A stretch of DNA of 64,000 nt from a virus. Location of the stretch: positions 1 to 64,000 of IMG/VR virus record IMGVR_UViG_3300047200_000500. One strand, given 5' to 3'. The number at the start of each line of letters is the position of its first letter. The stretch's first letter is position 1. Under the pieces are notes generated by a model that did no database searches, had not been told where the DNA came from, and was given only the letters and a program-made list of their open reading frames with translations. The translations under genes were made by a program, and so were the position numbers. Shown here piece after piece: positions 3,914-47,998 of this stretch.

Positions 3914-4282
3914 TTATTTCCTTATTTTCTCATTGTTAGATTTTGCTACATTAACTACTTGTTCACGCAATTTAGAGAAACAACTGTCGCATATTTTAAA
4001 TGTTACATTACTATCAACATCATTATGGTCTGGATGTACTGTTATATTATTTATTTCGACATCATTGTTTACATTAGTGTTAGATCCACACATTTTACAT
4101 GATGGTTTATTAACATTAGCTAGTATCTTTGTTAATGCTTCATTTCCTATATCTAAATCCAATACTCTGCCTTTATCTTTATTGTTGATAACAACAGTAT
4201 GGTATACTAATTTATTGTCTTTTATTAAATAATCATTTCCTGACAAGTCACAAATAATTCCTTTTTTACTTGGGTGGAGCAT
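3914..4282 (-). CDS. hypothetical Zn-binding protein
   Basis: CDLSG, CKMC, CDSC motifs. Confidence 0.6.
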   Translation of the reverse strand: MLHPSKKGIICDLSGNDYLIKDNKLVYHTVVINNKDKGRVLDLDIGNEALTKILANVNKPSCKMCGSNTNVNNDVEINNITVHPDHNDVDSNVTFKICDSCFSKLREQVVNVAKSNNEKIRK

Positions 4283-6731
4283 TTTTGTTCCTTAATGTCA
4301 TTACACTACAGTTTCTTTGTAAATTAAATGAATGATATTTTTCATTCCACTGCACGGGTACACGGACACCATTTCCAACTTTATAAATTTCTTCATCTTG
4401 AAATCTTATTGAGTCTTCCCAAATTTTTATTGGGTATGTTTCTATGCCATCACTTACTTGATAATTTCTAAATTTTTTACCATTTTTAGTTCTGTTATCT
4501 ACAAATCCTTCAACTATTCCGTCAACGTAATAATCTCCTTCTATTTTAGCATTTTCAAAATTATATTCACTATCATATTCAAATAATTGCATTGGATCAG
4601 TCCAATAAACTCCAAGATATTCTTTCTCGAACATTAATTTTTCTTTTAAAGTATAATCAACAGTTAATGCAATTACATCATTTATTGTTGGAAAATCATA
4701 CCTTGGGCCAATTTTCGGTTCCCAATTAGAAATCTTAGCAGGAATTTTCTTTTTTGGAAATGCTTTTTTGAATTCTGTTGCTTGTCTTTCCTGTTCAATT
4801 TTTATTTTGTCACCAGACCAATCTTTTTCTAATAATATCTTATTAACATCTTCCCTTACTTTATCAGTTTCTTCACTTTTCGATGTATATTTATAAATAT
4901 ACCAGTGCCACAAACCTTTCCTATTTGGCTCTATGTCATCAAAAGCGCCAAGTTTTATTAATCTTTCAGATATAGACTTACTCTTGCCATATTTTATTAT
5001 AAAATCATTAATATCAGAACAAGCACCACCATCTTTACTATATTGCAATGCTGCATTTTCTCCAATACCTTTAATCATGGCTAAGCTAGGATATACATTT
5101 AAATTTTTATCAATCACAAATTTATCTGAAAACATTCCAATTCTTAATGGTTTAAATTTAACTCCTTCTGATTTTGCAACACTCACATGTTTTGGAACTT
5201 TATCAGGGTGGCAATATGTTAAAATTGATGCCCAAAATTCTGGAGGATAATGAGCCTTCAACCATAGTGACCGATATGCTACAATTCCATATGCCATTGC
5301 ATGTGATAAATTGAAACAATATCTTCCAAAATCAACCATTCTTGACCAATATCCTTGAGCAGAATAAAAATCTGATTTTGGGTATTTTCCTTCTTCATCT
5401 GGTTCAGTTGGATCATTTTTAAAACCATTTTTAACCATAGCAGCAATAATTCTAGGTCCAAGCTTTAAGACTTCTTCTTTTTTCTTTTTAGAAACTGCCT
5501 TTCTGGCTTTTTCTGCTTCTGGAGCAGTTAAACCACCAAACTTCATCCACATTGCAGTTAGTTGTTCTTGGTAAACTACCACCCCGAAAGTTGATGCTAA
5601 CAGTTCAGCTACTCTTGGATCTTCTTTTTTCTTCCAAGATTGTTTAGTGTCATCTCTACGAGCAGCCCACTCTGGTATCATTGCCATCGGGCCTGGACGT
5701 GCCATTGCAGTATATGCTACAAGATCAAAAAATGATTTCACTCCATTTGTCAATACACCCTTAGCTACAGGAGTGTCAAATTGGAAGACGGCATCAGTTT
5801 TTATTTGATCTGCCATTTCTATAGCTTTAGGATCATTCATTAATATTTTAACTTTAGTTCCATCAGACAATACCTCATATCCAAAATATGGCTCATCAAC
5901 AGTTGGATCGCTGACACTCCAATCAATTGTTATATCACGAGTTTGTTTTATCAATTGTTCAGTATAAACATTATAAGCCATTGTTTTTAAACCAAGAATA
6001 TCAAATTTTACAAGACCAAATTTGCTCAATTGAGATGAAGCTAAACCTTCTGTCCATTGACTAACATGTTTACCGTTAATAATGCTCATTGGTACAGTAT
6101 CAGCTAAATTAACACTACTAATGATAACCCCACCAGCATGTTGACCTTGAGATTTTATTCTACCCCTCAGTTTTAGCGCCAATTCAATTACTTCACGATT
6201 AGTTTCATAGTACAATCTAAATTCTTCATTAACTGCTGTTATATCATCCAAATCCATATCATCATATTCATTTGGTAAATTCTTGGTTAAAATTAAAGCT
6301 TTGTCCATGTCACCACTGAGAATTCTAACTGAATCAAGAATAGCCTGTTTAGTCCCTAACGTATTCCAGTTACCAACTGTACAAACTTTGTCACATCCAA
6401 ATTTGTTAGATATAAACTGTTTAATTGGATCACGGGCATAGGGAAGCATATCTGAATCAATATCTGGAAATTCCGCTTCATAAGTTATTACATGATTTAT
6501 GTTGTTGACTATTGGATCAACATTGGTTATTTTTAATAAAAAAGGTAACACTAAACCATTCTTATTTGTGTCGTATTTCTTTTTATCAATTACCATCTGC
6601 ATATAATAATCGTTGGCAGCTTGCTTTTCTATTTCCTTTAATTCAAAATCTAATCTTTTAACATATTCTGGGCCAAGTTTTTCTGCCGTCTTGGTAGCAA
6701 ACGACATTATATCGGACCATTCTATAGCCAT
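4266..6731 (-). CDS. dnaE: DNA polymerase III alpha (DnaE), catalytic-Asp/fingers/HhH/OB part, no PHP domain
   Basis: FPDIDSD, GQHAGGVII, GLVKFDILGL, VFQF, YQEQ, FNLSHAMAY, LKAHYP, IKGIG, EKEYLG. Confidence 0.92.
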   Translation of the reverse strand: MAIEWSDIMSFATKTAEKLGPEYVKRLDFELKEIEKQAANDYYMQMVIDKKKYDTNKNGLVLPFLLKITNVDPIVNNINHVITYEAEFPDIDSDMLPYARDPIKQFISNKFGCDKVCTVGNWNTLGTKQAILDSVRILSGDMDKALILTKNLPNEYDDMDLDDITAVNEEFRLYYETNREVIELALKLRGRIKSQGQHAGGVIISSVNLADTVPMSIINGKHVSQWTEGLASSQLSKFGLVKFDILGLKTMAYNVYTEQLIKQTRDITIDWSVSDPTVDEPYFGYEVLSDGTKVKILMNDPKAIEMADQIKTDAVFQFDTPVAKGVLTNGVKSFFDLVAYTAMARPGPMAMIPEWAARRDDTKQSWKKKEDPRVAELLASTFGVVVYQEQLTAMWMKFGGLTAPEAEKARKAVSKKKKEEVLKLGPRIIAAMVKNGFKNDPTEPDEEGKYPKSDFYSAQGYWSRMVDFGRYCFNLSHAMAYGIVAYRSLWLKAHYPPEFWASILTYCHPDKVPKHVSVAKSEGVKFKPLRIGMFSDKFVIDKNLNVYPSLAMIKGIGENAALQYSKDGGACSDINDFIIKYGKSKSISERLIKLGAFDDIEPNRKGLWHWYIYKYTSKSEETDKVREDVNKILLEKDWSGDKIKIEQERQATEFKKAFPKKKIPAKISNWEPKIGPRYDFPTINDVIALTVDYTLKEKLMFEKEYLGVYWTDPMQLFEYDSEYNFENAKIEGDYYVDGIVEGFVDNRTKNGKKFRNYQVSDGIETYPIKIWEDSIRFQDEEIYKVGNGVRVPVQWNEKYHSFNLQRNCSVMTLRNKNAPPK

Positions 6732-6764
6732 ACTTTATAATATACTTTGATTATAAATACTGGT

Positions 6765-7262
6765 ATGAAAATGTATAAAAATAAAGAATTAATATGTGAC
6801 ATACCTGATAATTTATTGATAAATGATACAATAATTAATAAAAACAAAATATACATGATAACATCAAGAACATGGGATAATGACGATCAAGAACTATACT
6901 GTAAAGTAGAAGAATTAAAAGAAAATACACTATCCATAAGTGAGATATTAAAAGAAATATATCAATCAAATTATTTTGAAACTGTTGGGAGTAACACCAA
7001 TAATATTCAAGATAATCCTAAAACAATAATACTTTTAACAATAGCAGGATTGATAATGGAGCCTGAATATTTCAGTAACCATCATAAACGGTATAAAAAT
7101 AATATTCTGACACATTGGAATAACAAGAAAACACCATGGAATGAAATTTTTGATGACAATCCGCCAATATATATCAATGATTTGTTAGTTATTAAATCGA
7201 CAGCTGTAAAATTATTGACCGATTTAAAAATTAATAAAAATTTGTGGCCTAAATTAACATAA
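6765..7262 (+). CDS. hypothetical protein
   Basis: ORF preceded by TATAAATA (6752-6759), 13 nt before ATG. Confidence 0.6.
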   Translation: MKMYKNKELICDIPDNLLINDTIINKNKIYMITSRTWDNDDQELYCKVEELKENTLSISEILKEIYQSNYFETVGSNTNNIQDNPKTIILLTIAGLIMEPEYFSNHHKRYKNNILTHWNNKKTPWNEIFDDNPPIYINDLLVIKSTAVKLLTDLKINKNLWPKLT

Positions 7263-8475
7263 CCTTATCATCAGTCTTTGCGCCTGTCCCAATAAATAAC
7301 GTCTTTGCTCCATATTTATTGGCAACTTTACTAATGTTTTCATCGAGCCATTGTTTGGCTTTATTAGTTAATTTGTCTGAACCATTTCCACGAACTCCGT
7401 TCATTTTACCATCAACATAATTCATAAAATTGATAGATAAGAATATGTTACGGCCAGTCCTATTAAACTTTATTGAATCATCTAAACCAAGCTTCGTGAA
7501 TGTTGCAACACGTCTTGGTAGTTTTGTGACACTGGTAATTTCCATTATTTTAGTTTCTGATTCACTTAGTTTCGTGACATGATCCCAATCAACTTCAGTT
7601 TGATCTTCATACCATCCACCCGAATCGCCAATATATGTTTCAAATTTCTTACCAGCTATTTTATACTCTTCAACTTCTGCCCATGTTAAGAATTTACCAC
7701 CATCTCCAATATACTTAAAACTGCTAATTCTAATTGGGAATGTCCTATAATTAAGAATCACGTTTCCAGCATAAATTGGTGGAAGAAACATGCCATCAAG
7801 AGCAGCAGATACCGTTACATTTCTATTGGTACATGCTGGATGAAATTTATAATTCAAACTAAGTGGAAATCCTTGAGCTATTTCAAGAAGTCCTTTTTGA
7901 CCAGCATCAAGTCTTGAAATTATTTCATTTGAAACATCACATATCATTTCTTTTAATTCTGGTACATCCTTAGCATATAAGGTGTCCTTCCTTCTCAACA
8001 TTTTTCTAACTCTTGCCGGGCCTGTACCATGACAAGTAGAACCGTTTTTCTTAGTACCATCCTCTAACTTATTATATTTATTACCATCAAAATCAACTTC
8101 ACCTCTTTCATATGCCATATCTTTTTCTTGAATAATAGTAGCAAGTGGGTGAATACCAATCTTACTGATTGGAATGTTATTTTCTTCTATTTCTCTAAAA
8201 AGTGCTGGTAGTTCGATCGCTGCATCTGGCCCGATAAAAATTTTTTGATATTTATTTTGATAAGCACAACTATTGAAAGTCTGATAAAAATATGATTTGC
8301 CATTGTCAAGTTTGATCCAATGGCCTGCCTGAGCACTAAAAGCGTTGCACGCAAAATCATAATCAGCATGTTCACAAATGAATGACGCAATAGCTCCCTT
8401 ACCGCTAGAGCCTGGTGAACCATCCATTAATATTGTTAATTTGCCATTCTCAAATACAAAATTAGTGTCAAACAT
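7249..8475 (-). CDS. purZ: PurZ-type 2-amino-adenylosuccinate synthetase (PurA paralog)
   Basis: GSSGKG (Ser where PurA has GDEGKG), AGH, GSTxxG, EIAQG, RTFPIRI, TSVTKLPRR, INFMNY; AGGAG RBS. Confidence 0.85.
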   Translation of the reverse strand: MFDTNFVFENGKLTILMDGSPGSSGKGAIASFICEHADYDFACNAFSAQAGHWIKLDNGKSYFYQTFNSCAYQNKYQKIFIGPDAAIELPALFREIEENNIPISKIGIHPLATIIQEKDMAYERGEVDFDGNKYNKLEDGTKKNGSTCHGTGPARVRKMLRRKDTLYAKDVPELKEMICDVSNEIISRLDAGQKGLLEIAQGFPLSLNYKFHPACTNRNVTVSAALDGMFLPPIYAGNVILNYRTFPIRISSFKYIGDGGKFLTWAEVEEYKIAGKKFETYIGDSGGWYEDQTEVDWDHVTKLSESETKIMEITSVTKLPRRVATFTKLGLDDSIKFNRTGRNIFLSINFMNYVDGKMNGVRGNGSDKLTNKAKQWLDENISKVANKYGAKTLFIGTGAKTDDKVMLI

Positions 8476-8570
8476 GGTTTTATTCTCCTAGATTGTTTAA
8501 ATACTTGCAAAGTTATTTTTGAATCAGTATGATTATGTAAAGCATTTAACTAAAAACGCAAATTTATAAT

Positions 8571-9512
8571 ATGAATACATCACCAAAACTAGATGATCAA
8601 GCAATACAATATATAATTACAAATTATAATCACCGCAACTCTTCTGAATTAAGCAAAAAATTTAATGTGCAATTATCAACAATAGTTCACCATTTAAAGA
8701 AAAACAATGTTTATATAAAAGTCATGCCAAAACTCAATAATAACGACAAAATCAATATAATAAATGATTATAAAAGAGGGATTGATGTTTTAAAATTATC
8801 TAAACAATATGATATAGCTGTACAAAATGTTCATCGTTTATTAAAATTAAACAACATAAAAATACGTAATTCAAGAAATAAAAATGGTAGATTATATGAC
8901 TTGAATGAAAATTATTTTAGATCAATAAAAAATAGCGATGTTGCATATATAATAGGGTTAATAATAACTGATGGTAATGTAATGATTAGATATAACGGAT
9001 GTTACCTATCGATAACATTACATATAAACGATAAATATATTCTTGAAGAAATAAGCAAAAAATTAAGTTACAATGGCCCATTATACATTTATAAAAATAG
9101 AAATGCATGCGCATTAAAAATATGTTCTAAAATATTATGTGACGATTTAAAAAAATATTGCATTGTACCAAATAAAAGTTTAACTGTAAAGTTTCCTGAT
9201 ATTAACAAATATTTTTATCATTTTTTGAGAGGAGTTATTGATGGTGACGGTTCGATAATGATGTCACAAAAACGTAATAGACCAGCAATAGTTATATATA
9301 GTGGATCTTTTAATTTTACTAATGGCTTATATAAAAAATTATGTAAATTAAAAATGGAACCGGTATTTCAAAAAGTTAATGATAGAGCATACAGAATAAT
9401 TATCGGAAAAAGAAAACCAATAGTAAAATTATTAAAATTGTTATATAAAAATGCGAATATGTTTCTAATAAGAAAAAAAGAAATGGCTAATAAAATTATA
9501 GATCAATTTTAA
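8571..9512 (+). CDS. free-standing LAGLIDADG homing endonuclease with N-terminal HTH repeats
   Basis: YIIGLIITDG and FLRGVIDGDG motifs; antisense to flanking genes. Confidence 0.85.
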   Translation: MNTSPKLDDQAIQYIITNYNHRNSSELSKKFNVQLSTIVHHLKKNNVYIKVMPKLNNNDKINIINDYKRGIDVLKLSKQYDIAVQNVHRLLKLNNIKIRNSRNKNGRLYDLNENYFRSIKNSDVAYIIGLIITDGNVMIRYNGCYLSITLHINDKYILEEISKKLSYNGPLYIYKNRNACALKICSKILCDDLKKYCIVPNKSLTVKFPDINKYFYHFLRGVIDGDGSIMMSQKRNRPAIVIYSGSFNFTNGLYKKLCKLKMEPVFQKVNDRAYRIIIGKRKPIVKLLKLLYKNANMFLIRKKEMANKIIDQF

Positions 9513-10029
9513 TCATTTTAATTTTTAATTTTTTTAGCATCTTATCAGAAACTTCATCATATGGATATATATCCATATAACATACAGTTTTTATTTTACT
9601 TGGTAAAATAACATTTTTAACACAATTGTGACATGGGTAATTTGTTATAAACATTTTTGATGTTTTTGGATTAAATCTATCAATTGCTTTTATGAAATTA
9701 TTTTGCTCGGCATGTACCACATAAGCATATTTGTTATGTTTATCATCTTTATTCCTATTGTCCCATAACAAAACTTCGTCTGGGAAACCAACTGGAAAAC
9801 CATTATATCCAAGAAATAACGCTCCACTGTCATAATCATAAATTGATGAACCAACTTTTGTATTTGGATCTTTTGACCGAATTTGTGACCATAAATATGT
9901 AATTAACATTACTGATTTATCAATATCCAACTTACTTTTATAACATTTATTTACAATGTTATTTTTAAAATTTAAAATTTTATTAATATCTAGCTTGGTA
10001 TCTTTGCTATTACGTTTTGATTCATCCAT
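9496..10029 (-). CDS. dCMP deaminase family protein
   Basis: RSKDPNTKVG, GYNG, VVHAEQN, PCHNC. Confidence 0.85.
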   Translation of the reverse strand: MDESKRNSKDTKLDINKILNFKNNIVNKCYKSKLDIDKSVMLITYLWSQIRSKDPNTKVGSSIYDYDSGALFLGYNGFPVGFPDEVLLWDNRNKDDKHNKYAYVVHAEQNNFIKAIDRFNPKTSKMFITNYPCHNCVKNVILPSKIKTVCYMDIYPYDEVSDKMLKKLKIKMIKIDL

Positions 10030-10334
10030 ATAAGTTTATTTCCTTTAAATAAAATACGGGCATGCAGATGATCCAATTCTTTAACAAAACCATCTTTTAA
10101 AAATAATGGATGTTTTGTATCAACGCACATTACAGAATCACCTATTTTAAAATTCGGCAAAATAACTTCAAGAAAATTGTGAAACGGTACACCAACAGAA
10201 CAAATATCATCGCTTGTTGCTAATGAATGGTTAAATCTGTAAATGTTACCACAATTAGAACAATTAAATATTATATGTTCTGATGTAACTTCACTTTCTT
10301 TTTCATTAAAATGTTTACAATATGGACAATACAT
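9990..10334 (-). CDS. hypothetical protein, Zn ribbon plus SH3/KOW-like domain
   Basis: CPYC...CSNC, FKIGDSV. Confidence 0.55.
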   Translation of the reverse strand: MYCPYCKHFNEKESEVTSEHIIFNCSNCGNIYRFNHSLATSDDICSVGVPFHNFLEVILPNFKIGDSVMCVDTKHPLFLKDGFVKELDHLHARILFKGNKLIWMNQNVIAKIPS

Positions 10335-10335
10335 G

Positions 10336-10971
10336 TCATAATTTAGAAGCGTGCATTGAAAACATTACATTGTTTAATAACGAAATGTTTTCTGGCGCTG
10401 CCTCAAGTTTAATTTTAGCTTGAGTCATACCAATCCCTTCTCTAATTAAATTACCAACTTCTAATCTATTTTCAAACGTAACATTGACCGGAGTTACAAT
10501 TCTAATTAAATCAAATTTGATATCTTTATAACTTTCTTTAATTGCTTTGATACAATTTTCTATATGCTTGGTTCCATATGCAGTGTTAATAATCCATCTA
10601 ATAGCCATTGCTTGATTGTATTGCTTCAAGAAATTACTTACAGATTTCATCTCATTCATTAATTCTGTGTAATTTTTATTTTTAGAAAGACCTATTTCAC
10701 ACCCATTAATGTTGCCATAATTTATTTTATGCATCATTTTATTAAGGCCAAAAGTTAAGCCAAGCAAATCAATTTCAACCATGATACTATATTTAGAATT
10801 TAATCTTGTCCTCATCAAAGCAATTAAGTCACAAAATTCTGGTGATACAATTATTGCCGGGCATTTATATTTTGTGGCAAGTAAATCAATTTTAGTAATA
10901 TCTGGAAAACTTCTTTCTGGAGTTAAAATATATGGTTCAACTTTTACTGATTTATCAAGAGTTAATGGCAT
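10336..10971 (-). CDS. degenerate DeoC-like TIM-barrel protein
   Basis: Spacing of PAIIVSPEF / GCEIG / IRWIINT / FDLIRI / KIKLEA follows the DeoC strand pattern; Schiff-base Lys appears to be Arg. Confidence 0.4.
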   Translation of the reverse strand: MPLTLDKSVKVEPYILTPERSFPDITKIDLLATKYKCPAIIVSPEFCDLIALMRTRLNSKYSIMVEIDLLGLTFGLNKMMHKINYGNINGCEIGLSKNKNYTELMNEMKSVSNFLKQYNQAMAIRWIINTAYGTKHIENCIKAIKESYKDIKFDLIRIVTPVNVTFENRLEVGNLIREGIGMTQAKIKLEAAPENISLLNNVMFSMHASKL

Positions 10972-11016
10972 GGTTTATCCACTTGTTGTTTAAGAATATC
11001 CAGGACAAATTATCTA

Positions 11017-11580
11017 CTATGCTGGCCAATTATTGGGTAAGAATATCCATTTTAACTTATTTGGTTCGATTATTCCTGAATGTATTTTTATCAAATATTC
11101 TGTTAAATCATTCATTGGGCCAAAAAATGTTGTATTTATTTCAAATTGATCACCGAACTGTACTAATCTCCACATCGAATCTATTTTATCTTTATCATCA
11201 GTAAAAAACAAAACTGGTTTATTTTGATCACTGGCCTTCGCTAATTCATGAAAAGTACCAACAGTAGGGCCACCTATTTTACAAATTACAAAATCACAAG
11301 CCGAAACCAATCTTAAACAAACATTTTTTATTGAATTATTCCTGTCGAAAATATGTGATACTTTAGTTACTGCAAGATTATCAAAATTGTTATTAATGTA
11401 GTTTCTGTCAGCTTTTTGATCATCACCAGTAACACTAGACATCCAAGATGGTTTAATTAATGGATCCCATACTTTAATACCAAGTTTTTTAAGTTTTGGA
11501 GTTATTTTAACTCTCCAATCATCATCATGGTTCTCGATTGGTCCTGCCAAGTACGCCTTAGTATTGTTTAATAAATTCAT
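11017..11580 (-). CDS. nucleoside 2'-deoxyribosyltransferase / dNMP N-glycosidase superfamily protein
   Basis: YLAGPI...WR...VWDP...CDFVI...GTFHEL...KPV. Confidence 0.75.
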   Translation of the reverse strand: MNLLNNTKAYLAGPIENHDDDWRVKITPKLKKLGIKVWDPLIKPSWMSSVTGDDQKADRNYINNNFDNLAVTKVSHIFDRNNSIKNVCLRLVSACDFVICKIGGPTVGTFHELAKASDQNKPVLFFTDDKDKIDSMWRLVQFGDQFEINTTFFGPMNDLTEYLIKIHSGIIEPNKLKWIFLPNNWPA

Positions 11581-11600: not shown

Positions 11601-12530
11601 TCATTTAGATAAATCTAAAATTTTTTGGATTGCATCTTTGTGGTCCCATTTATTGAATTTTTCTACAAAAGAAAATGGATTATAACTTGAACAGAAATAA
11701 AATTTCTTCCTCATTTCTTCTGATAAAATAGTTGCAGCGTGATTATAATGATTTGCTTCATATGTAAATCTTTGGATTCTTATTTCAGTATCAACATCTG
11801 GATTAAAACCATTTCCATAATGATGAGTTTTCCCATTGACAGCACACATATCTATACCAAATATAAATATCTTATCAAAATTCATAAATAATGCTGTTTG
11901 CATATTGGCATAAACACTACTCCTTCCTATATAATATCCATTAGTAATATCAATATTAAAACCTTGTCCTTGTATCGCCTTTATTAAAATCTGGTTTGAT
12001 CTTCTTGCTCTTACTCCTATACTATTTATCAATAATCCATTATATGATTCAAATTCTAATTTGTTCCTTTCATATTGACTTTGGTCACAAAATGCCCAAT
12101 AATCAGTTGGCCATATATAACTTATAGGTTTGTTTATTACCATTGTTCTGATATTTTTACCATTTTTTAAAGGTGAAAAATCAACTTCATTCGCAGACGG
12201 ACCACAAGCTATCATCACAAGTATTTGTCCAGTTCCAGAGTTTTTTAAACTCATTAACCTATTATAGTCTGCATCTCTAGTTATTGGGTTTTGTTGACTT
12301 CTGTTTACTTGTCTTATTGTTTTGTTGCTTACAAGTGGTTTATTTATTGGTTTGTGATTATTATTTACAAGAATTCTTGTTTGCGGTAACTGTTTTACAA
12401 ATAATCTAGAATTTTGAAGTTCTCTAGGTGGTTCTAAAACTTTTCCTATTCTTGGAATAGGCGGCTGAACACGTTTTATGATATTTTTGATATCTCTTTG
12501 CCTAACAACTGGAATAATTCTTTTGTTCAT
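11601..12530 (-). CDS. Maf/MptE-like (GT29-like fold) putative sugar transferase with basic low-complexity N-terminus
   Basis: IACGPS, VINK, FCD, SSVYANMQTALFMNFDKIFIFGIDM, HHY. Confidence 0.6.
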   Translation of the reverse strand: MNKRIIPVVRQRDIKNIIKRVQPPIPRIGKVLEPPRELQNSRLFVKQLPQTRILVNNNHKPINKPLVSNKTIRQVNRSQQNPITRDADYNRLMSLKNSGTGQILVMIACGPSANEVDFSPLKNGKNIRTMVINKPISYIWPTDYWAFCDQSQYERNKLEFESYNGLLINSIGVRARRSNQILIKAIQGQGFNIDITNGYYIGRSSVYANMQTALFMNFDKIFIFGIDMCAVNGKTHHYGNGFNPDVDTEIRIQRFTYEANHYNHAATILSEEMRKKFYFCSSYNPFSFVEKFNKWDHKDAIQKILDLSK

Positions 12531-12543
12531 TCTATATCTTTGT

Positions 12544-13002
12544 TCAATCAGAAGAATTTACGCCATCAGAATGATCATAAAAATTTGAGATATGGCTAAG
12601 CAATTCCGGGGCTTTCTCTTGAACTACTTGACGAACGAATGCGGAGTGATTCTTTTTTCTTCTTTTATCACTGTTTTTGAAAGAACAGAGAAGTCTTTGA
12701 ACAGTTGTAGTGACCAAGTTAAACACAGGACTACCACCTTGACAACTAGGCTTAAACTTCAACCTTCCAGTTCTAATCTTTTCAAAAAGTTTAGTGACAG
12801 CTTCGTTAGCAAGATTGCAATGTTCTTCATCATCTTTCGGCCTGAAATTTTTAGAGATACCTAAACAAATAAGATATAACATTTCTGACATGTGCTTCCA
12901 GTTTCGGTCATCACCAGTGTCCCTCCACCCAGCCCACCACTCTTCTAACTCTTTGGAATTAACATAAAATTTTGTTGGCTTCTTCGGCTTAATCAGTTTC
13001 AT
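12544..13002 (-). CDS. T4 gp55-like late sigma factor
   Basis: FYVNSKEL, EMLYLIC..IS, FKP...PVFNLVT pattern; region 2 only; start MKLIK at 13002 with GTATTTAA 13 nt upstream. Confidence 0.65.
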   Translation of the reverse strand: MKLIKPKKPTKFYVNSKELEEWWAGWRDTGDDRNWKHMSEMLYLICLGISKNFRPKDDEEHCNLANEAVTKLFEKIRTGRLKFKPSCQGGSPVFNLVTTTVQRLLCSFKNSDKRRKKNHSAFVRQVVQEKAPELLSHISNFYDHSDGVNSSD

Positions 13003-13024
13003 TAACCTTAAATACAGGACAAAT

Positions 13025-14212
13025 ATGAGCAGCAGTGTCGGAATGCAAATGCCAGGGTTGTATCTTCGTGGTTCATTAAAAAGAACTATGAGAGATGTAG
13101 ACCCAGAAATGAAAGCAGAAGTCGAAGAAATTATTAGCATGGTTTATAGTGATCCACAGTTGCAAGCATGTAAAATTCAATTTAAAAATGCTTTAAGAAA
13201 TACTATCGGCGGTGACTACAGATCGGATCAAGAGTCTGCTGATCAAGAATTTTTAGTAGCAGTATGGAGAGCAGCTGTTGCAGCAAAATGTGGATGGGGC
13301 AAACATCCAGCATCACAATCAACAATTGATGACAAAATACAAAGAAAGAAATTTTTTCAAACCTGGGTTTTTAACTATTTGAGACAAATGTTGTTAGAGA
13401 ACAAACCAGCAATTCAAAAAATTGAAACATATGATAATATACCAACGTACGAACATGTAAAAAACGAAATAATTCAATCTCTAGATGGTCATCAAAGAAT
13501 TATAAAAGAATATACATATGGTGAATGTGAAATATCAGTAAACACTAATATATTACCTACTTCAATAATAGCAAAACTGAATGTTCTAAGTGAACATTAT
13601 TGTGACAAAAATATCGACATTACTATTAACGATGATAAAATATTAGTCCTATCATCGTTTGAAATATTAAAAAAGAAATTAATAGAATTGTTAAATCCTA
13701 AGATAGATTATGATTCTGTTGTGAAATTCAGTGTAAGTGTCGATTTAAATCTTGTTTCAACTGAAATAATAAAATCAATGAACGAATTATTAAATAAGTA
13801 TTTTACTAAATTAGGCATAAAAATTACAAATAATTCAATTGAAATAGATAATTATGATAACGCAATATGTCAAAAGAAAGTTATCAAATCAAGTAGAGTT
13901 ATCATCAAATCAGTTCATAGGAATGACAACGATGAAGAAAATTGCATTCCGGAGATTGCCGATATGAATCCGGAAGAATTTAAGGACCCAGATACTATTA
14001 AAGTGTTTTATGAAAGTCTTTCAGATGATGCTAAAAAAATTGTTGATGTTATTATTAATCAACCAGATGAATATGAAGAAACATTTAAAACAAAGAAACC
14101 TGTACAGAAATATATTAGTGAATATCTTGGTTTTGAGCTAAATTATACTAAGCAATTATATTCAGAAATGAGAATAAAATATGTTAATTTAATTGGAAGA
14201 TCAAAAGATTAA
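13025..14212 (+). CDS. sigma70-family-like factor (region 2, duplicated insert, region 4 HTH)
   Basis: DQEFLVAVWRA...FFQTWVFNYLRQML; C-terminal SLSDDAKKIV...ISEYLG. Confidence 0.55.
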   Translation: MSSSVGMQMPGLYLRGSLKRTMRDVDPEMKAEVEEIISMVYSDPQLQACKIQFKNALRNTIGGDYRSDQESADQEFLVAVWRAAVAAKCGWGKHPASQSTIDDKIQRKKFFQTWVFNYLRQMLLENKPAIQKIETYDNIPTYEHVKNEIIQSLDGHQRIIKEYTYGECEISVNTNILPTSIIAKLNVLSEHYCDKNIDITINDDKILVLSSFEILKKKLIELLNPKIDYDSVVKFSVSVDLNLVSTEIIKSMNELLNKYFTKLGIKITNNSIEIDNYDNAICQKKVIKSSRVIIKSVHRNDNDEENCIPEIADMNPEEFKDPDTIKVFYESLSDDAKKIVDVIINQPDEYEETFKTKKPVQKYISEYLGFELNYTKQLYSEMRIKYVNLIGRSKD

Positions 14213-46885: not shown

Positions 46886-47998
46886 ATGATTGTTATCGTA
46901 GTTTCATGGAAAAATGATAAACCTACTAAATATTCTATATTTAAAGATAAAATATTAATTAAATCATCTGATCTCTGGAAATCCGGCACAAACAAGAAAA
47001 TAATAGATGTTAAAAAAGAAGAAAGCACTTTAATAAAATTATTGTTATCTCTTGATGAATTCGTCATTGTTAATTTTAAAAAATTTATAGATTATTTTAA
47101 AATAATTGAATTTAATACTGTTTATGATTATCCTGGTGATATTGAAGATGATAAGCATTTAGAATTTGTCGAGGCCAATTGGGAAGAATTTGGCAAAGTG
47201 TGGCAAAAATTAAGATCACAAGCTGCTATTGTTTATCATAAACTAGAGAGGAAAGGTGTAATGTATGAACACAAATTAATGAAACCTGCATATGATATGA
47301 ATGTCTTTAGCGGAAGGTCAAGTACAACAGGGTTTAATATTCAAGGTTGTAATAAAGAATTTAATATTACACATATTAATCCTAGAAATAATGTTTTTAT
47401 TCATTTTGACTGGATGGCTGCGGATCATAGAATAGCAGCAATTTTATCAAATGATCAAGATTTACTTGGGTGCTATAAAGATTCGGATCCTTATACTTAT
47501 ATAGTTAACATTTTGGATGGTGAAGTTGACAGAGATCAGTGTAAAAGTGAGTTCATGCAGGCTGTATATGGGCTAAATCCAGACCATGAAATTTTATCTG
47601 TATTCCCATCATTTCGTGATTGGATTGCGGAAAAGGTTAAAGAATTAAATGATATTGGATATGTCAGGTCAATGCTTGGTAGAAAATATGAAACCGATAA
47701 AACTGTAAAAGGAAACAGAAGGGCATTTAATAGTATTATGCAAGGTGGTGTGGCCCATGCTATGAATAATGTAATTTATAAGATAGATCATGAATTTGGT
47801 GAAATAATTTTAACAGAACAACATGACTCTCTTACTTTGTGTGTGAATGAATTGATGATTGTAAAAACTATTAAGGGCGTATCTGATATTATGCTACATC
47901 CATTTCATGGTATTTTAGAAAATAACCCCACTATGCCATTGCGTGTACACATAGGTAAACGTTGGCGTGAGTACAAACAAGTAAAGGAGATAAGATGA
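46886..47998 (+). CDS. minimal family A DNA polymerase
   Basis: SGRSST..NIQ, motif A FDWMAADHR, motif B R..CK....VYG, AFNSIMQG, motif C QHDS. Confidence 0.75.
   Translation: MIVIVVSWKNDKPTKYSIFKDKILIKSSDLWKSGTNKKIIDVKKEESTLIKLLLSLDEFVIVNFKKFIDYFKIIEFNTVYDYPGDIEDDKHLEFVEANWEEFGKVWQKLRSQAAIVYHKLERKGVMYEHKLMKPAYDMNVFSGRSSTTGFNIQGCNKEFNITHINPRNNVFIHFDWMAADHRIAAILSNDQDLLGCYKDSDPYTYIVNILDGEVDRDQCKSEFMQAVYGLNPDHEILSVFPSFRDWIAEKVKELNDIGYVRSMLGRKYETDKTVKGNRRAFNSIMQGGVAHAMNNVIYKIDHEFGEIILTEQHDSLTLCVNELMIVKTIKGVSDIMLHPFHGILENNPTMPLRVHIGKRWREYKQVKEIR

Follow-up and report, generated by a model that had tools for sequence, protein, structure and literature searches.

Results

The window, the 64,000-nucleotide stretch covering positions 1 to 64,000 of the IMG/VR virus record IMGVR_UViG_3300047200_000500, carries a run of minus-strand genes around a purZ-type gene. 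The genes named in the first-pass annotation were all confirmed at their stated positions, namely those for an NDT-fold protein of 187 residues, a DmtZ-like candidate dNMP N-glycosidase/transferase (11017..11580), a TIM barrel of 211 residues from an unannotated family (10336..10971), a small Zn-ribbon protein of 114 residues (9990..10334), a dCMP-deaminase-family enzyme of 177 residues (9496..10029), and a PurZ-type 2-aminoadenylosuccinate synthetase of 408 residues (7249..8475), followed by the 821-residue C-terminal part of a DnaE-type polymerase without PHP domain (4266..6731; PF07733, PF17657, PF14579), and all of them lie on the minus strand. Four further genes had been left out of that description. 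Two are conserved upstream members of the run: a gene that immediately precedes the NDT gene and encodes a 309-residue putative MptE-like/DUF115-superfamily protein (11601..12530, minus strand) and a conserved 198-residue open reading frame (12544..13140, minus strand), which opens the tightly spaced series; from here down to the deaminase gene the intergenic gaps are 13, 20, 45, 1, and -40 nt. The other two lie on the plus strand and break the run, namely a free-standing LAGLIDADG homing endonuclease gene (8571..9512; PF14528; PHROG 4645, 6.5e-51), whose insertion separates purZ from the deaminase gene, and a 171-residue open reading frame between purZ and dnaE (6747..7262), which has orthologs in the same place at 13 loci, matches nothing in Pfam or the PDB, and carries neither an HD nor a MazG motif.

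Conservation of the block was followed in related metagenomic contigs. The gene at 11601..12530 keeps its position in all relatives, and 9/9 orthologs scanned weakly match PF01973, with a best E of 1e-5 that falls short of the curated cut-off. Orthologs of the 12544..13140 product, which has no Pfam or PHROG family match, are likewise found in all relatives, as is dnaE at the same position, with inteins in some copies. The Zn protein, with the motifs CPYC (residue 3) and CSNC (residue 25), has orthologs in most relatives, L015, L016, and L017 among them. The homing endonuclease gene is missing from L005, L008, and L011, and a different LAGLIDADG gene occupies the insertion site in L003 and L004. 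The deaminase (PF00383, 2e-10; PHROG 174, 8.5e-24) has intact zinc and catalytic motifs, HAE at residue 106 and PCHNC at residue 132. Because its gene is absent in four relatives (L009, L010, L016, and L017), we regard the deaminase as a dispensable neighbor that is accessory to the block, and not as the core module part for which it had initially been taken.

The NDT-fold protein matches PF05014 (E 1.2e-8), and the best Foldseek matches of its AF2 model (pLDDT 86) are CtNDT, MilB, and DNPH1, with E values from 2e-6 to 8e-4. When a profile of 19 homologs was aligned to the DmtZ sequences of Ghobes, Wayne, and Spocter, hhalign returned a probability of 94% (E 1.3e-7), and the NDT-family HMM scored the Spocter DmtZ-DutZ protein at 21.6 bits, whereas no solved NDT or DNPH1 exceeded 14.5 bits and the DNPH1/Rcl and MilB group scored 12.8-14.4 bits. 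An HMM built from DmtZ only recovered, at E<=1e-3, just its three source sequences. Judged from these profile comparisons, the NDT-fold protein is a remote and very divergent homolog of DmtZ, the dAMP-specific N-glycosidase of PurZ0 actinophages that also transfers deoxyribose-5-phosphate (dR5P) onto the Z base (NAR, Feb 2026, PMC12884076).

Five residues are invariant among the 19 homologs, Y10, E16, P40, E112, and W137, and in the alignment these correspond to Tyr6, Asp12, Pro57, Glu103, and Trp124 of DmtZ. The catalytic Tyr/Glu core (Y10 and E112) is intact, and E112 also pairs with E88 of CtNDT. In DmtZ, the substitutions Y6A, E103A, D12A, and D12R abolish activity, and the essential Asp12 is the proposed acceptor of adenine N6, at a position, six residues after the tyrosine, where Arg is reported to be common in hydrolases (PMC12884076). 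The NDT-fold family carries the invariant E16 here, Glu instead of Asp, and the relatives Rcl (Arg) and TbPDT (Val) have no acid. Six residues before the catalytic glutamate, in the 5'-phosphate pocket, the window protein has T106, where DmtZ has Thr97 and Rcl a Ser, and the nucleoside NDTs CtNDT (D82) and TbPDT have Asp. The equivalent of the third triad residue, Asn77 in DmtZ and Asp in most NDTs (PMC12884076), depends on the alignment: hhalign points to the near-invariant D58, and a HMMER alignment to Rcl and TbPDT points to C/A88.

For the protein encoded at 10336..10971, a DERA-type TIM barrel fold is predicted with high confidence. Its AF2 model (pLDDT 95.3) superposes on DERA in VIA with a Z score of 18.9 and an rmsd of 3.1 Å over 198 of 211 residues; DERA structures and designs derived from them fill the first 48 places among PDB entries, and the next TIM barrels follow at Z 14.8. 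The top Foldseek matches are likewise all DERA, and an Atlas search gave a TM score of 0.77 to DeoC clusters. At the sequence level, the window protein has no Pfam, PHROG, or PDB match, none of 20 distant members of its family (171 cluster representatives) matches Pfam, PF01791 included, and hhalign of the family against a DERA alignment gave a probability of 0.5%.

Conserved positions in the barrel family are E12, D68, K78, G90, E/D92, E107, R125, and K188. Lys201 and Asp102 are the proton-relay residues of DERA, and by strand position they are matched by K188 on strand 7, present in 60/61 family members, and by E/D92 on strand 4, present in 61/61. The Schiff-base lysine of DERA is invariant on strand 6 (K167 in E. 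coli, K155 in BH1352; PMC8403123). With residues mapped by strand order and motif likeness, no invariant lysine was found at the K167 position in the barrel family (R in 43, K in 10, and another residue in 8 of 61). Two registers are possible for this column, which across the purZ-linked barrel clade holds K/K/K/N/R/K/K/K or R/R/K/T/V/T/T/R and in the window protein K152 or R157. The initial label of a DeoC-like protein holds for the fold, which is common to both, but without an invariant Schiff-base lysine in its family the protein does not qualify as a DeoC.

The synthetase (7249..8475) matches PF00709, and among PDB sequences its top hit is the phiVC8 PurZ (6fko, 7e-25). It is only 28% identical to characterized PurZ enzymes and about 45-65 residues longer. 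Its P-loop reads GSSGKG versus GDEGKG in E. coli, so that in the window, as in every relative, Ser takes the place of PurA Asp13, and this Ser is found in all 147 phage sequences of the PurZ group (PMC12884076). In a maximum-likelihood tree of 18 sequences, the window synthetase clade joins MaF61 with support of 100/99 and groups with the PurZ of phiVC8 and SH-Ab15497, away from the PurZ0 of Wayne, Ghobes, and Spocter and from E. coli PurA, this deeper split being weak (76/65). By sequence, the enzyme is of PurZ type and not PurZ0, and the phages of this lineage probably build 2-aminoadenine (Z) DNA.

Searches for DatZ, MazZ, DUF550, and DUF5664 with the profiles PF01966 (E<=0.001), PF12917, PF03819, PF04447, and PF18909 (E<=1) returned no DatZ, YfbR-like, HD, MazZ, MazG, DUF550, or DUF5664 protein in 169,621 bases of the record, in keeping with the earlier proposal that dAMP removal takes the place of DatZ; CheckV puts the record at 46% completeness and DatZ could lie in the remaining part of the genome. 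The same 169,621 bases contain an adenosine-deaminase-family gene and one dUTPase gene (162140-162547 of the record, ~150 kb from the block), and no PurB or recognized DpoZ was found in them.

The barrel gene lies directly 3' of the NDT gene on 16/16 distinct metagenomic contigs, and in many cases the stop codon of the first overlaps the start codon of the second. Of these contigs, 12 extend 4 kb or more downstream, and each of the 12 carries purZ within ~6.5 kb of the pair; on L015 a distant barrel homolog lies ~1 kb upstream of a purZ gene with two other genes between. The suggested association with purZ is seen in every relative that can be judged. However, since the linked contigs all come from a single syntenic phage lineage with a common backbone of helicase, Mre11/Rad50-like genes, and DnaE, this co-occurrence is not independent evidence, and the genes may be adjacent through inheritance of their order and not through selection for linkage. 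Flavobacterium phage MaF61, which has the closest cultured PurZ homolog, has neither the NDT nor the barrel gene, and in the megaphage LR756511 an NDT relative occurs with neither the barrel gene nor purZ in its vicinity. In relatives, Mom-like and methyltransferase genes are found next to the block.

Discussion

On balance, and with modest confidence, we favor the view that the block is a conserved nucleotide-pool module with DmtZ-like clearing of dAMP in an uncultured lineage of large, AT-rich, T4-like PurZ phages. Building on the directly established fold, homology, residue conservation, and gene linkage, we infer a pathway toward Z DNA in which the NDT-fold protein, as a distant and unfused DmtZ relative, most likely splits dAMP at its N-glycosidic bond to release adenine and dR5P, and may also pass dR5P onto the free Z base. 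Adenine deoxynucleotides would be removed at the monophosphate level, with dAMP supplied from dATP by the phage dUTPase-family or host enzymes, and this NDT-based clearing would stand in for the DatZ/MazZ/DUF550 proteins of other PurZ phages. As dR5P is both the product of DmtZ and the substrate of DeoC, and was used so in the published DmtZ assay (PMC12884076), the DERA-fold protein would belong to the same pathway, most likely binding or converting dR5P without a classical Schiff-base lysine. In a T-rich genome, the dCMP deaminase would be a routine and dispensable source of the dUMP needed to make dTMP.

Adenine removal at the monophosphate level had been put forward in the first-pass annotation as an undescribed route to a Z genome. 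The route is supported by the homology to DmtZ, the Tyr/Glu core, T106, and E16, but it is no longer undescribed, because DmtZ was published in February 2026 (PMC12884076); a link between NDTs and dZ phages has also been reported (bioRxiv 10.1101/2025.10.22.683976). What is new here is the pairing of NDT and barrel genes and the phage lineage in which it occurs.

A competing explanation, which we consider unlikely and yet worth serious attention, is ordinary nucleotide housekeeping, with the NDT enzyme acting on another (deoxy)nucleoside monophosphate or salvaging bases and lying near purZ only through the bundling of replication and nucleotide genes in large T4-like phages. There are precedents for such an activity, as DNPH1 hydrolyzes hmdUMP and MilB hmCMP, and both rank similarly to CtNDT in our fold search. 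The setting in a syntenic replication block, the PurZ homolog of MaF61 that comes without the NDT-barrel pair, and the solitary NDT relative of LR756511 would all fit this explanation. It is at odds, however, with the invariant acid at the DmtZ Asp12 position, with an NDT-fold profile that is closer to DmtZ than to solved NDTs, with the presence of purZ on every contig long enough to judge, and with the failure to find any other known dATP-clearing gene in the 169,621 bases.

Rather improbable, in our view, is that the MptE-like, NDT-fold, and DERA-fold proteins form a three-enzyme pathway of their own, independent of Z and directed at a modified nucleotide or sugar, for example by transferring (deoxy)ribose phosphate onto another base or taking part in DNA hypermodification. 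Such a pathway would accommodate the unbroken, tight succession of the three genes in all relatives and the Mom-like and methyltransferase genes close by. It would also fit a barrel that probably has a chemistry other than that of DERA, given that its family keeps no invariant lysine at the nucleophile position. Yet the MptE-like match stays under its curated cut-off, we know of no pathway that combines these three folds, and a Z pathway is the simpler account of the DmtZ-like residues. That the synthetase is not a working PurZ, so that the phage DNA has ordinary A and the neighboring genes serve no Z pathway, could be argued from its low identity and extra length and from the failure to find PurB, DatZ, MazZ, or a recognized DpoZ in the 169,621 bases, but we think this very improbable given the Ser hallmark published for the PurZ group (PMC12884076), the phiVC8 PurZ as best solved match, and the retention of the gene across divergent relatives.

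Among known systems, DeoC/DERA (EC 4.1.2.4; PF01791) is the closest fold of the barrel by a clear margin, and the barrel has the length of short DERAs and their strand-7 Lys and strand-4 acid; in contrast, it matches neither PF01791 nor DERA by sequence or profile, its Schiff-base position is variable, and the Gly-rich phosphate loop is missing from the window's clade. With the DatZ and MazZ/DUF550 scheme of S-2L, phiVC8, and SH-Ab 15497, the block would share the presumed goal of keeping dATP from the pool during synthesis of the Z precursor by PurZ, although those families were not detected in the 169,621 bases and clearance would act on dAMP instead of dATP. The NDT-fold protein shares its fold and Tyr/Glu core with DNPH1/Rcl and MilB, the dNMP/NMP N-glycosidases of the NDT superfamily, as well as Ser/Thr in place of Asp six residues before the glutamate, which fits a 5'-phosphate substrate, whereas Rcl has Arg where the NDT-fold family has the invariant E16.

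The closest parallel is DmtZ, with which the NDT-fold protein shares the fold, profile-level homology, the Tyr and Glu catalytic residues, an acid at the Asp12 position, equivalents of Pro57 and Trp124, and a Thr in the phosphate pocket, in addition to a nearby PurZ-group synthetase and a genome with a dUTPase-family gene in which DatZ and MazZ were not found (169,621 bases of a record ~46% complete). The published DmtZ clade is monophyletic, confined to PurZ0 phages, and adjoins or is fused with DutZ (PMC12884076). The window's NDT gene lacks this genomic hallmark, being neither fused to nor adjoining the dUTPase gene, and its product has low identity to DmtZ and a likeness detectable by profiles only, with Glu in place of Asp12, an ambiguous Asn77 equivalent, and a helical insertion of ~30 extra residues that form a long helix in this family. 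A DERA-fold gene always follows 3' of the NDT gene, whereas Ghobes and Wayne have none beside purZ, and the carrier, a large T4-like phage, has DnaE and a synthetase on the PurZ side, as opposed to the PurZ0 actinophage siphoviruses in which DmtZ was described.

A divergent relative of DmtZ beside a PurZ-group synthetase

The product of the NDT-fold gene (11017-11580, minus strand) matches PF05014 at 1.2e-8, and its AF2 model, built with 19 homologues (pLDDT 86), matches cyanobacterial NDT, MilB and DNPH1. The first-pass annotation had proposed removal of dAMP at the monophosphate level as a possible, undescribed route to a genome containing 2-aminoadenine (Z), but the principle has been known since 2026 from DmtZ, an NDT-family enzyme of PurZ0 actinophages that hydrolyses dAMP and transfers deoxyribose 5-phosphate to the Z base, published in February of that year (PMC12884076). 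NDT genes have also been linked to dZ contigs in a preprint (bioRxiv 10.1101/2025.10.22.683976). When the NDT-fold family was compared, profile against profile, with the DmtZ sequences of the phages Ghobes, Wayne and Spocter, hhalign returned a probability of 94% and an E value of 1.3e-7, and the family HMM scored Spocter DmtZ-DutZ at 21.6 bits, whereas no solved chain of the NDT superfamily exceeded 14.5 bits. In the alignment, Tyr6, Asp12, Pro57, Glu103 and Trp124 of DmtZ pair with Y10, E16, P40, E112 and W137, all five of which are invariant within the NDT-fold family, and the DmtZ mutants Y6A, E103A, D12A and D12R are dead (PMC12884076). Six residues ahead of the glutamate, where Rcl has Ser, DmtZ has Thr97 and nucleoside transferases have Asp, the NDT-fold protein carries T106, a residue compatible with a 5'-phosphate substrate. 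The third residue of the triad is D58 by hhalign versus C/A88 by HMMER (Rcl, TbPDT). Unlike DmtZ, the NDT-fold family contains a helical insertion of ~30 residues.

The synthetase encoded by purZ (7249-8475, minus strand) belongs to PF00709; among solved structures, phiVC8 PurZ (6fko, 7e-25) is its best match. Its P-loop reads GSSGKG, versus GDEGKG in E. coli PurA, and therefore contains the Ser-for-Asp13 change that is present in 147 of 147 phage sequences of the PurZ group (PMC12884076). A maximum-likelihood tree of 18 sequences joined the window clade to Flavobacterium phage MaF61 with support of 100/99 and placed it with the PurZ of phiVC8 and SH-Ab15497, the deeper split being weakly supported; PurZ0 of Wayne, Ghobes and Spocter grouped with E. 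coli PurA, away from the window clade. Although their gene order is the same, the relatives carry purZ genes of two deeply separated clades, one comprising contigs L008, L009, L006 and L010 and the other the window with L001, L003, L005, L011 and L015, which suggests that purZ has been replaced by recombination within a fixed neighbourhood. The L015 purZ is very close to that of the window (652 bits).

A DERA-shaped barrel from an unannotated family

The 211-aa product of the adjacent gene (10336-10971, minus strand) is predicted to adopt a DERA fold. It has no match in Pfam, PHROGs or PDB sequences, and sequence and profile searches against PDB chains gave chance matches only. A profile search recovered 171 cluster representatives at 50% identity, and a scan of 20 of the more distant ones likewise revealed no Pfam family. 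All best Foldseek matches of the AF2 model (61 sequences, pLDDT 95.3) are deoxyribose-phosphate aldolases (E 8e-8, TM 0.73). VIA-align gave a Z of 18.9 (rmsd 3.1 Å, 198 residues) and likewise listed 48 DERA or DERA-derived entries ahead of other barrels, which start at 14.8, and the ESM Atlas search reached a TM of 0.77 to DeoC clusters. The earlier description of this protein as DeoC-like, reached from sequence alone, is thus upheld for the fold, but the active site differs. Class I aldolases keep this lysine invariant; in the barrel family the position holds Arg in 43 of 61 members and Lys in 10 of 61, which argues that the barrel is not a classical DeoC.

The Schiff-base lysine of DERA is K167 in the E. 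coli enzyme and K155 in BH1352 (PMC8403123). Within the purZ-linked clade the corresponding position reads K/K/K/N/R/K/K/K or R/R/K/T/V/T/T/R, according to the alignment register, and K152 of the window barrel may occupy it, again depending on register. When an HMM of distant members was aligned to the close clade, the 'IRTD' motif could take two different registers. Comparing the barrel family with E. coli DeoC, whether as a single sequence or within an alignment of 12, hhalign paired no more than strands 2-3 (probability <1%), and the E. coli DeoC homologue search gave only sequences at least 80% identical, so that strand 6 is not mapped to one register. Residues that are invariant or nearly so across the 61 members are E12, D68, K78, G90, E/D92, E107, R125 and K188; by strand position, K188 is equivalent to K201 of DERA and E/D92 to D102. 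Neither Ghobes nor Wayne showed a member of the barrel family among the proteins encoded next to purZ.

Organization of the locus and linkage to purZ

The genes named in the first-pass annotation are all real, and their family assignments hold in ORF and family searches. They lie on an IMG/VR virus record of 169,621 bases (G+C ~30%) with a CheckV completeness of 46%, of which the window makes up the first 64 kb. A minus-strand run begins with ORF198 (12544-13140) and continues through ORF309 (11601-12530), the NDT-fold and barrel genes, a 114-aa Zn-ribbon gene (9990-10334) and the deaminase gene (9496-10029), the successive gaps being 13, 20, 45, 1 and -40 nt. No minus-strand terminator was found inside the run, and a promoter scan gave sites no more numerous than in shuffled sequence. 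Beyond a LAGLIDADG endonuclease gene (8571-9512, plus strand) follow purZ, the conserved ORF171 (6747-7262, plus strand) and a gene for the C-terminal portion of DnaE polymerase (4266-6731, minus strand). A DNA-level search found no match to the block among GenBank phages.

Relatives were gathered through homologues of the NDT protein, scans of IMG/VR and metagenomes, and two distant barrel homologues, and all loci were searched with HMMs. Single-protein scans of IMG/VR gave one close relative only; for pattern scans, a wide alignment of the barrel proved too diverse, and a narrow one gave one extra locus. On all 16 distinct NDT-carrying contigs with readable downstream sequence the barrel gene directly follows the NDT gene, often overlapping it by 1-8 nt, and the pairing is seen even on contigs of 1.2-1.7 kb. 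The expected linkage to purZ was borne out, with purZ no more than ~6.5 kb away on 12 of 12 contigs reaching at least 4 kb further, although these contigs represent one phage lineage rather than independent cases because the backbone is common to all. L016 ends 3.3 kb downstream with no purZ before its end, and L015, which starts with a distant barrel homologue, has purZ ~1 kb downstream. In the complete genome of MaF61, genes for a PurB-like lyase and a homologue of PurZ are present and the NDT and barrel genes are both absent, and a 595-kb megaphage carries an NDT relative alone. The dCMP deaminase, originally counted as part of the module, is missing in L009, L010, L016 and L017 and is thus accessory. 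We consider ordinary nucleotide housekeeping a rather improbable explanation of the block as a whole.

Several relatives differ in detail. In L016, a dCTP-deaminase-like protein fused to HNH (5187-6545) replaces the dCMP deaminase. L015 (29-3100) encodes a barrel of a distant 243-aa type and has an RNase T-like exonuclease gene between the barrel gene and purZ, an arrangement that appears to be a module assembled as a mosaic. Between the deaminase gene and purZ, the window and its close relatives L003 (12108-12941) and L004 (12385-12933) carry different LAGLIDADG genes, whereas this site is empty in more distant relatives; L006 and L008 carry inteins in DnaE and helicase. The block is a homing-element hot spot.

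ORF309 is found directly upstream of the NDT-fold gene in all relatives, and 9 of 9 orthologues match the MptE-like/DUF115 family weakly (best E 1e-5). This family takes in pyrophosphokinases and Maf-type glycosyltransferases. That the block forms a separate modification pathway, with the MptE-like ORF309 as one of its members, seems unlikely to us. Several relatives have Mom-like genes (PF25680) within the block or next to it (L006:1-311, L009:12967-14769), and further DNA modification in this phage lineage is possible.

ORF171, which is antisense and always situated between purZ and dnaE (13 loci), has conserved residues that include a DTII motif and W124/W167, and no family or solved-structure match. 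It was rejected as a hidden DatZ or MazZ because HD and EExxE motifs and any family or PDB match are absent.

A possible route for adenine clearance

Models for HD, YfbR-like (DatZ), MazG, DUF550 and DUF5664 proteins found nothing in the 170 kb of the record; neither PurB nor ThyX was found in these 170 kb. Such absences are provisional because the record covers less than half of the genome. That the Z pathway is non-functional seems to us very improbable.

One dUTPase-family gene is present (record positions 162134-162760, minus strand); its 208-aa product has a ~70-residue N-terminal extension and shares 33% identity with the Dut half of Wayne DmtZ-DutZ. If DutZ-like, it would act on dATP and dGTP. 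The record also contains an adenosine-deaminase-family gene (record positions 121329-122279; PF00962, E 8.7e-43), whose product, were its substrate adenine, dA or dAMP, would render the removal of adenine irreversible downstream of a DmtZ-like enzyme. A 370-aa PolA-like protein (46886-47998, plus strand), which matches only the C-terminal third of DNA polymerase family A (PF00476, 1.3e-10), is a possible candidate for a Z-selective polymerase; the phage also encodes a split DnaE.

Taken as a whole, we lean slightly towards a DmtZ-like mode of adenine clearance. PurZ would divert dGMP to the Z precursor, and either the dUTPase-family enzyme or host enzymes would convert dATP to dAMP. Judging from homology and residues, the DmtZ-like enzyme would then split dAMP into adenine and deoxyribose 5-phosphate (dR5P) and may load the Z base onto dR5P. 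The barrel would handle dR5P, a role suggested by the strict gene coupling, the DERA shape and the fact that dR5P is both the product of DmtZ and the substrate of DeoC (PMC12884076), and the deaminase would feed dTMP synthesis.

More tentatively, the NDT-fold enzyme and the DERA-fold barrel could form a dedicated two-enzyme, DatZ-independent adenine purge for PurZ-side phages, acquired independently of actinophage DmtZ/DutZ. The NDT-fold enzyme would split dAMP, and the barrel would be a new dR5P enzyme without the classical strand-6 Schiff-base lysine, for instance one that uses K188 as nucleophile or acts non-covalently; it would either pull the reaction forward or recycle the sugar phosphate.

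Comparison with known Z-DNA systems

If DmtZ-like clearance is confirmed, a very divergent DmtZ-like enzyme would serve PurZ-side phages of another type (large, T4-like and DnaE-replicating), which would widen the known distribution of the DmtZ route and add one more case of convergence in Z-DNA metabolism. It would also mean that an unannotated DERA-shaped family, with 171 clusters at 50% identity, no Pfam model and no invariant lysine at the aldolase nucleophile position, is strictly coupled to a DmtZ-like enzyme and is a concrete candidate for a missing dR5P-handling step. Both proteins would offer new parts for engineering Z-DNA synthesis.

In the published systems, the monophosphate-level adenine purge by DmtZ is confined to PurZ0 actinophages, and DatZ together with MazZ/DUF550 is assigned to PurZ phages (PMC12884076). 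The present locus is new in its phage type and in its PurZ-side context, which lies outside the published distribution, as well as in the great divergence of the NDT-fold enzyme, whose gene is separate from the dUTPase gene, and in its obligatory pairing with a DERA-fold protein whose family is unannotated.
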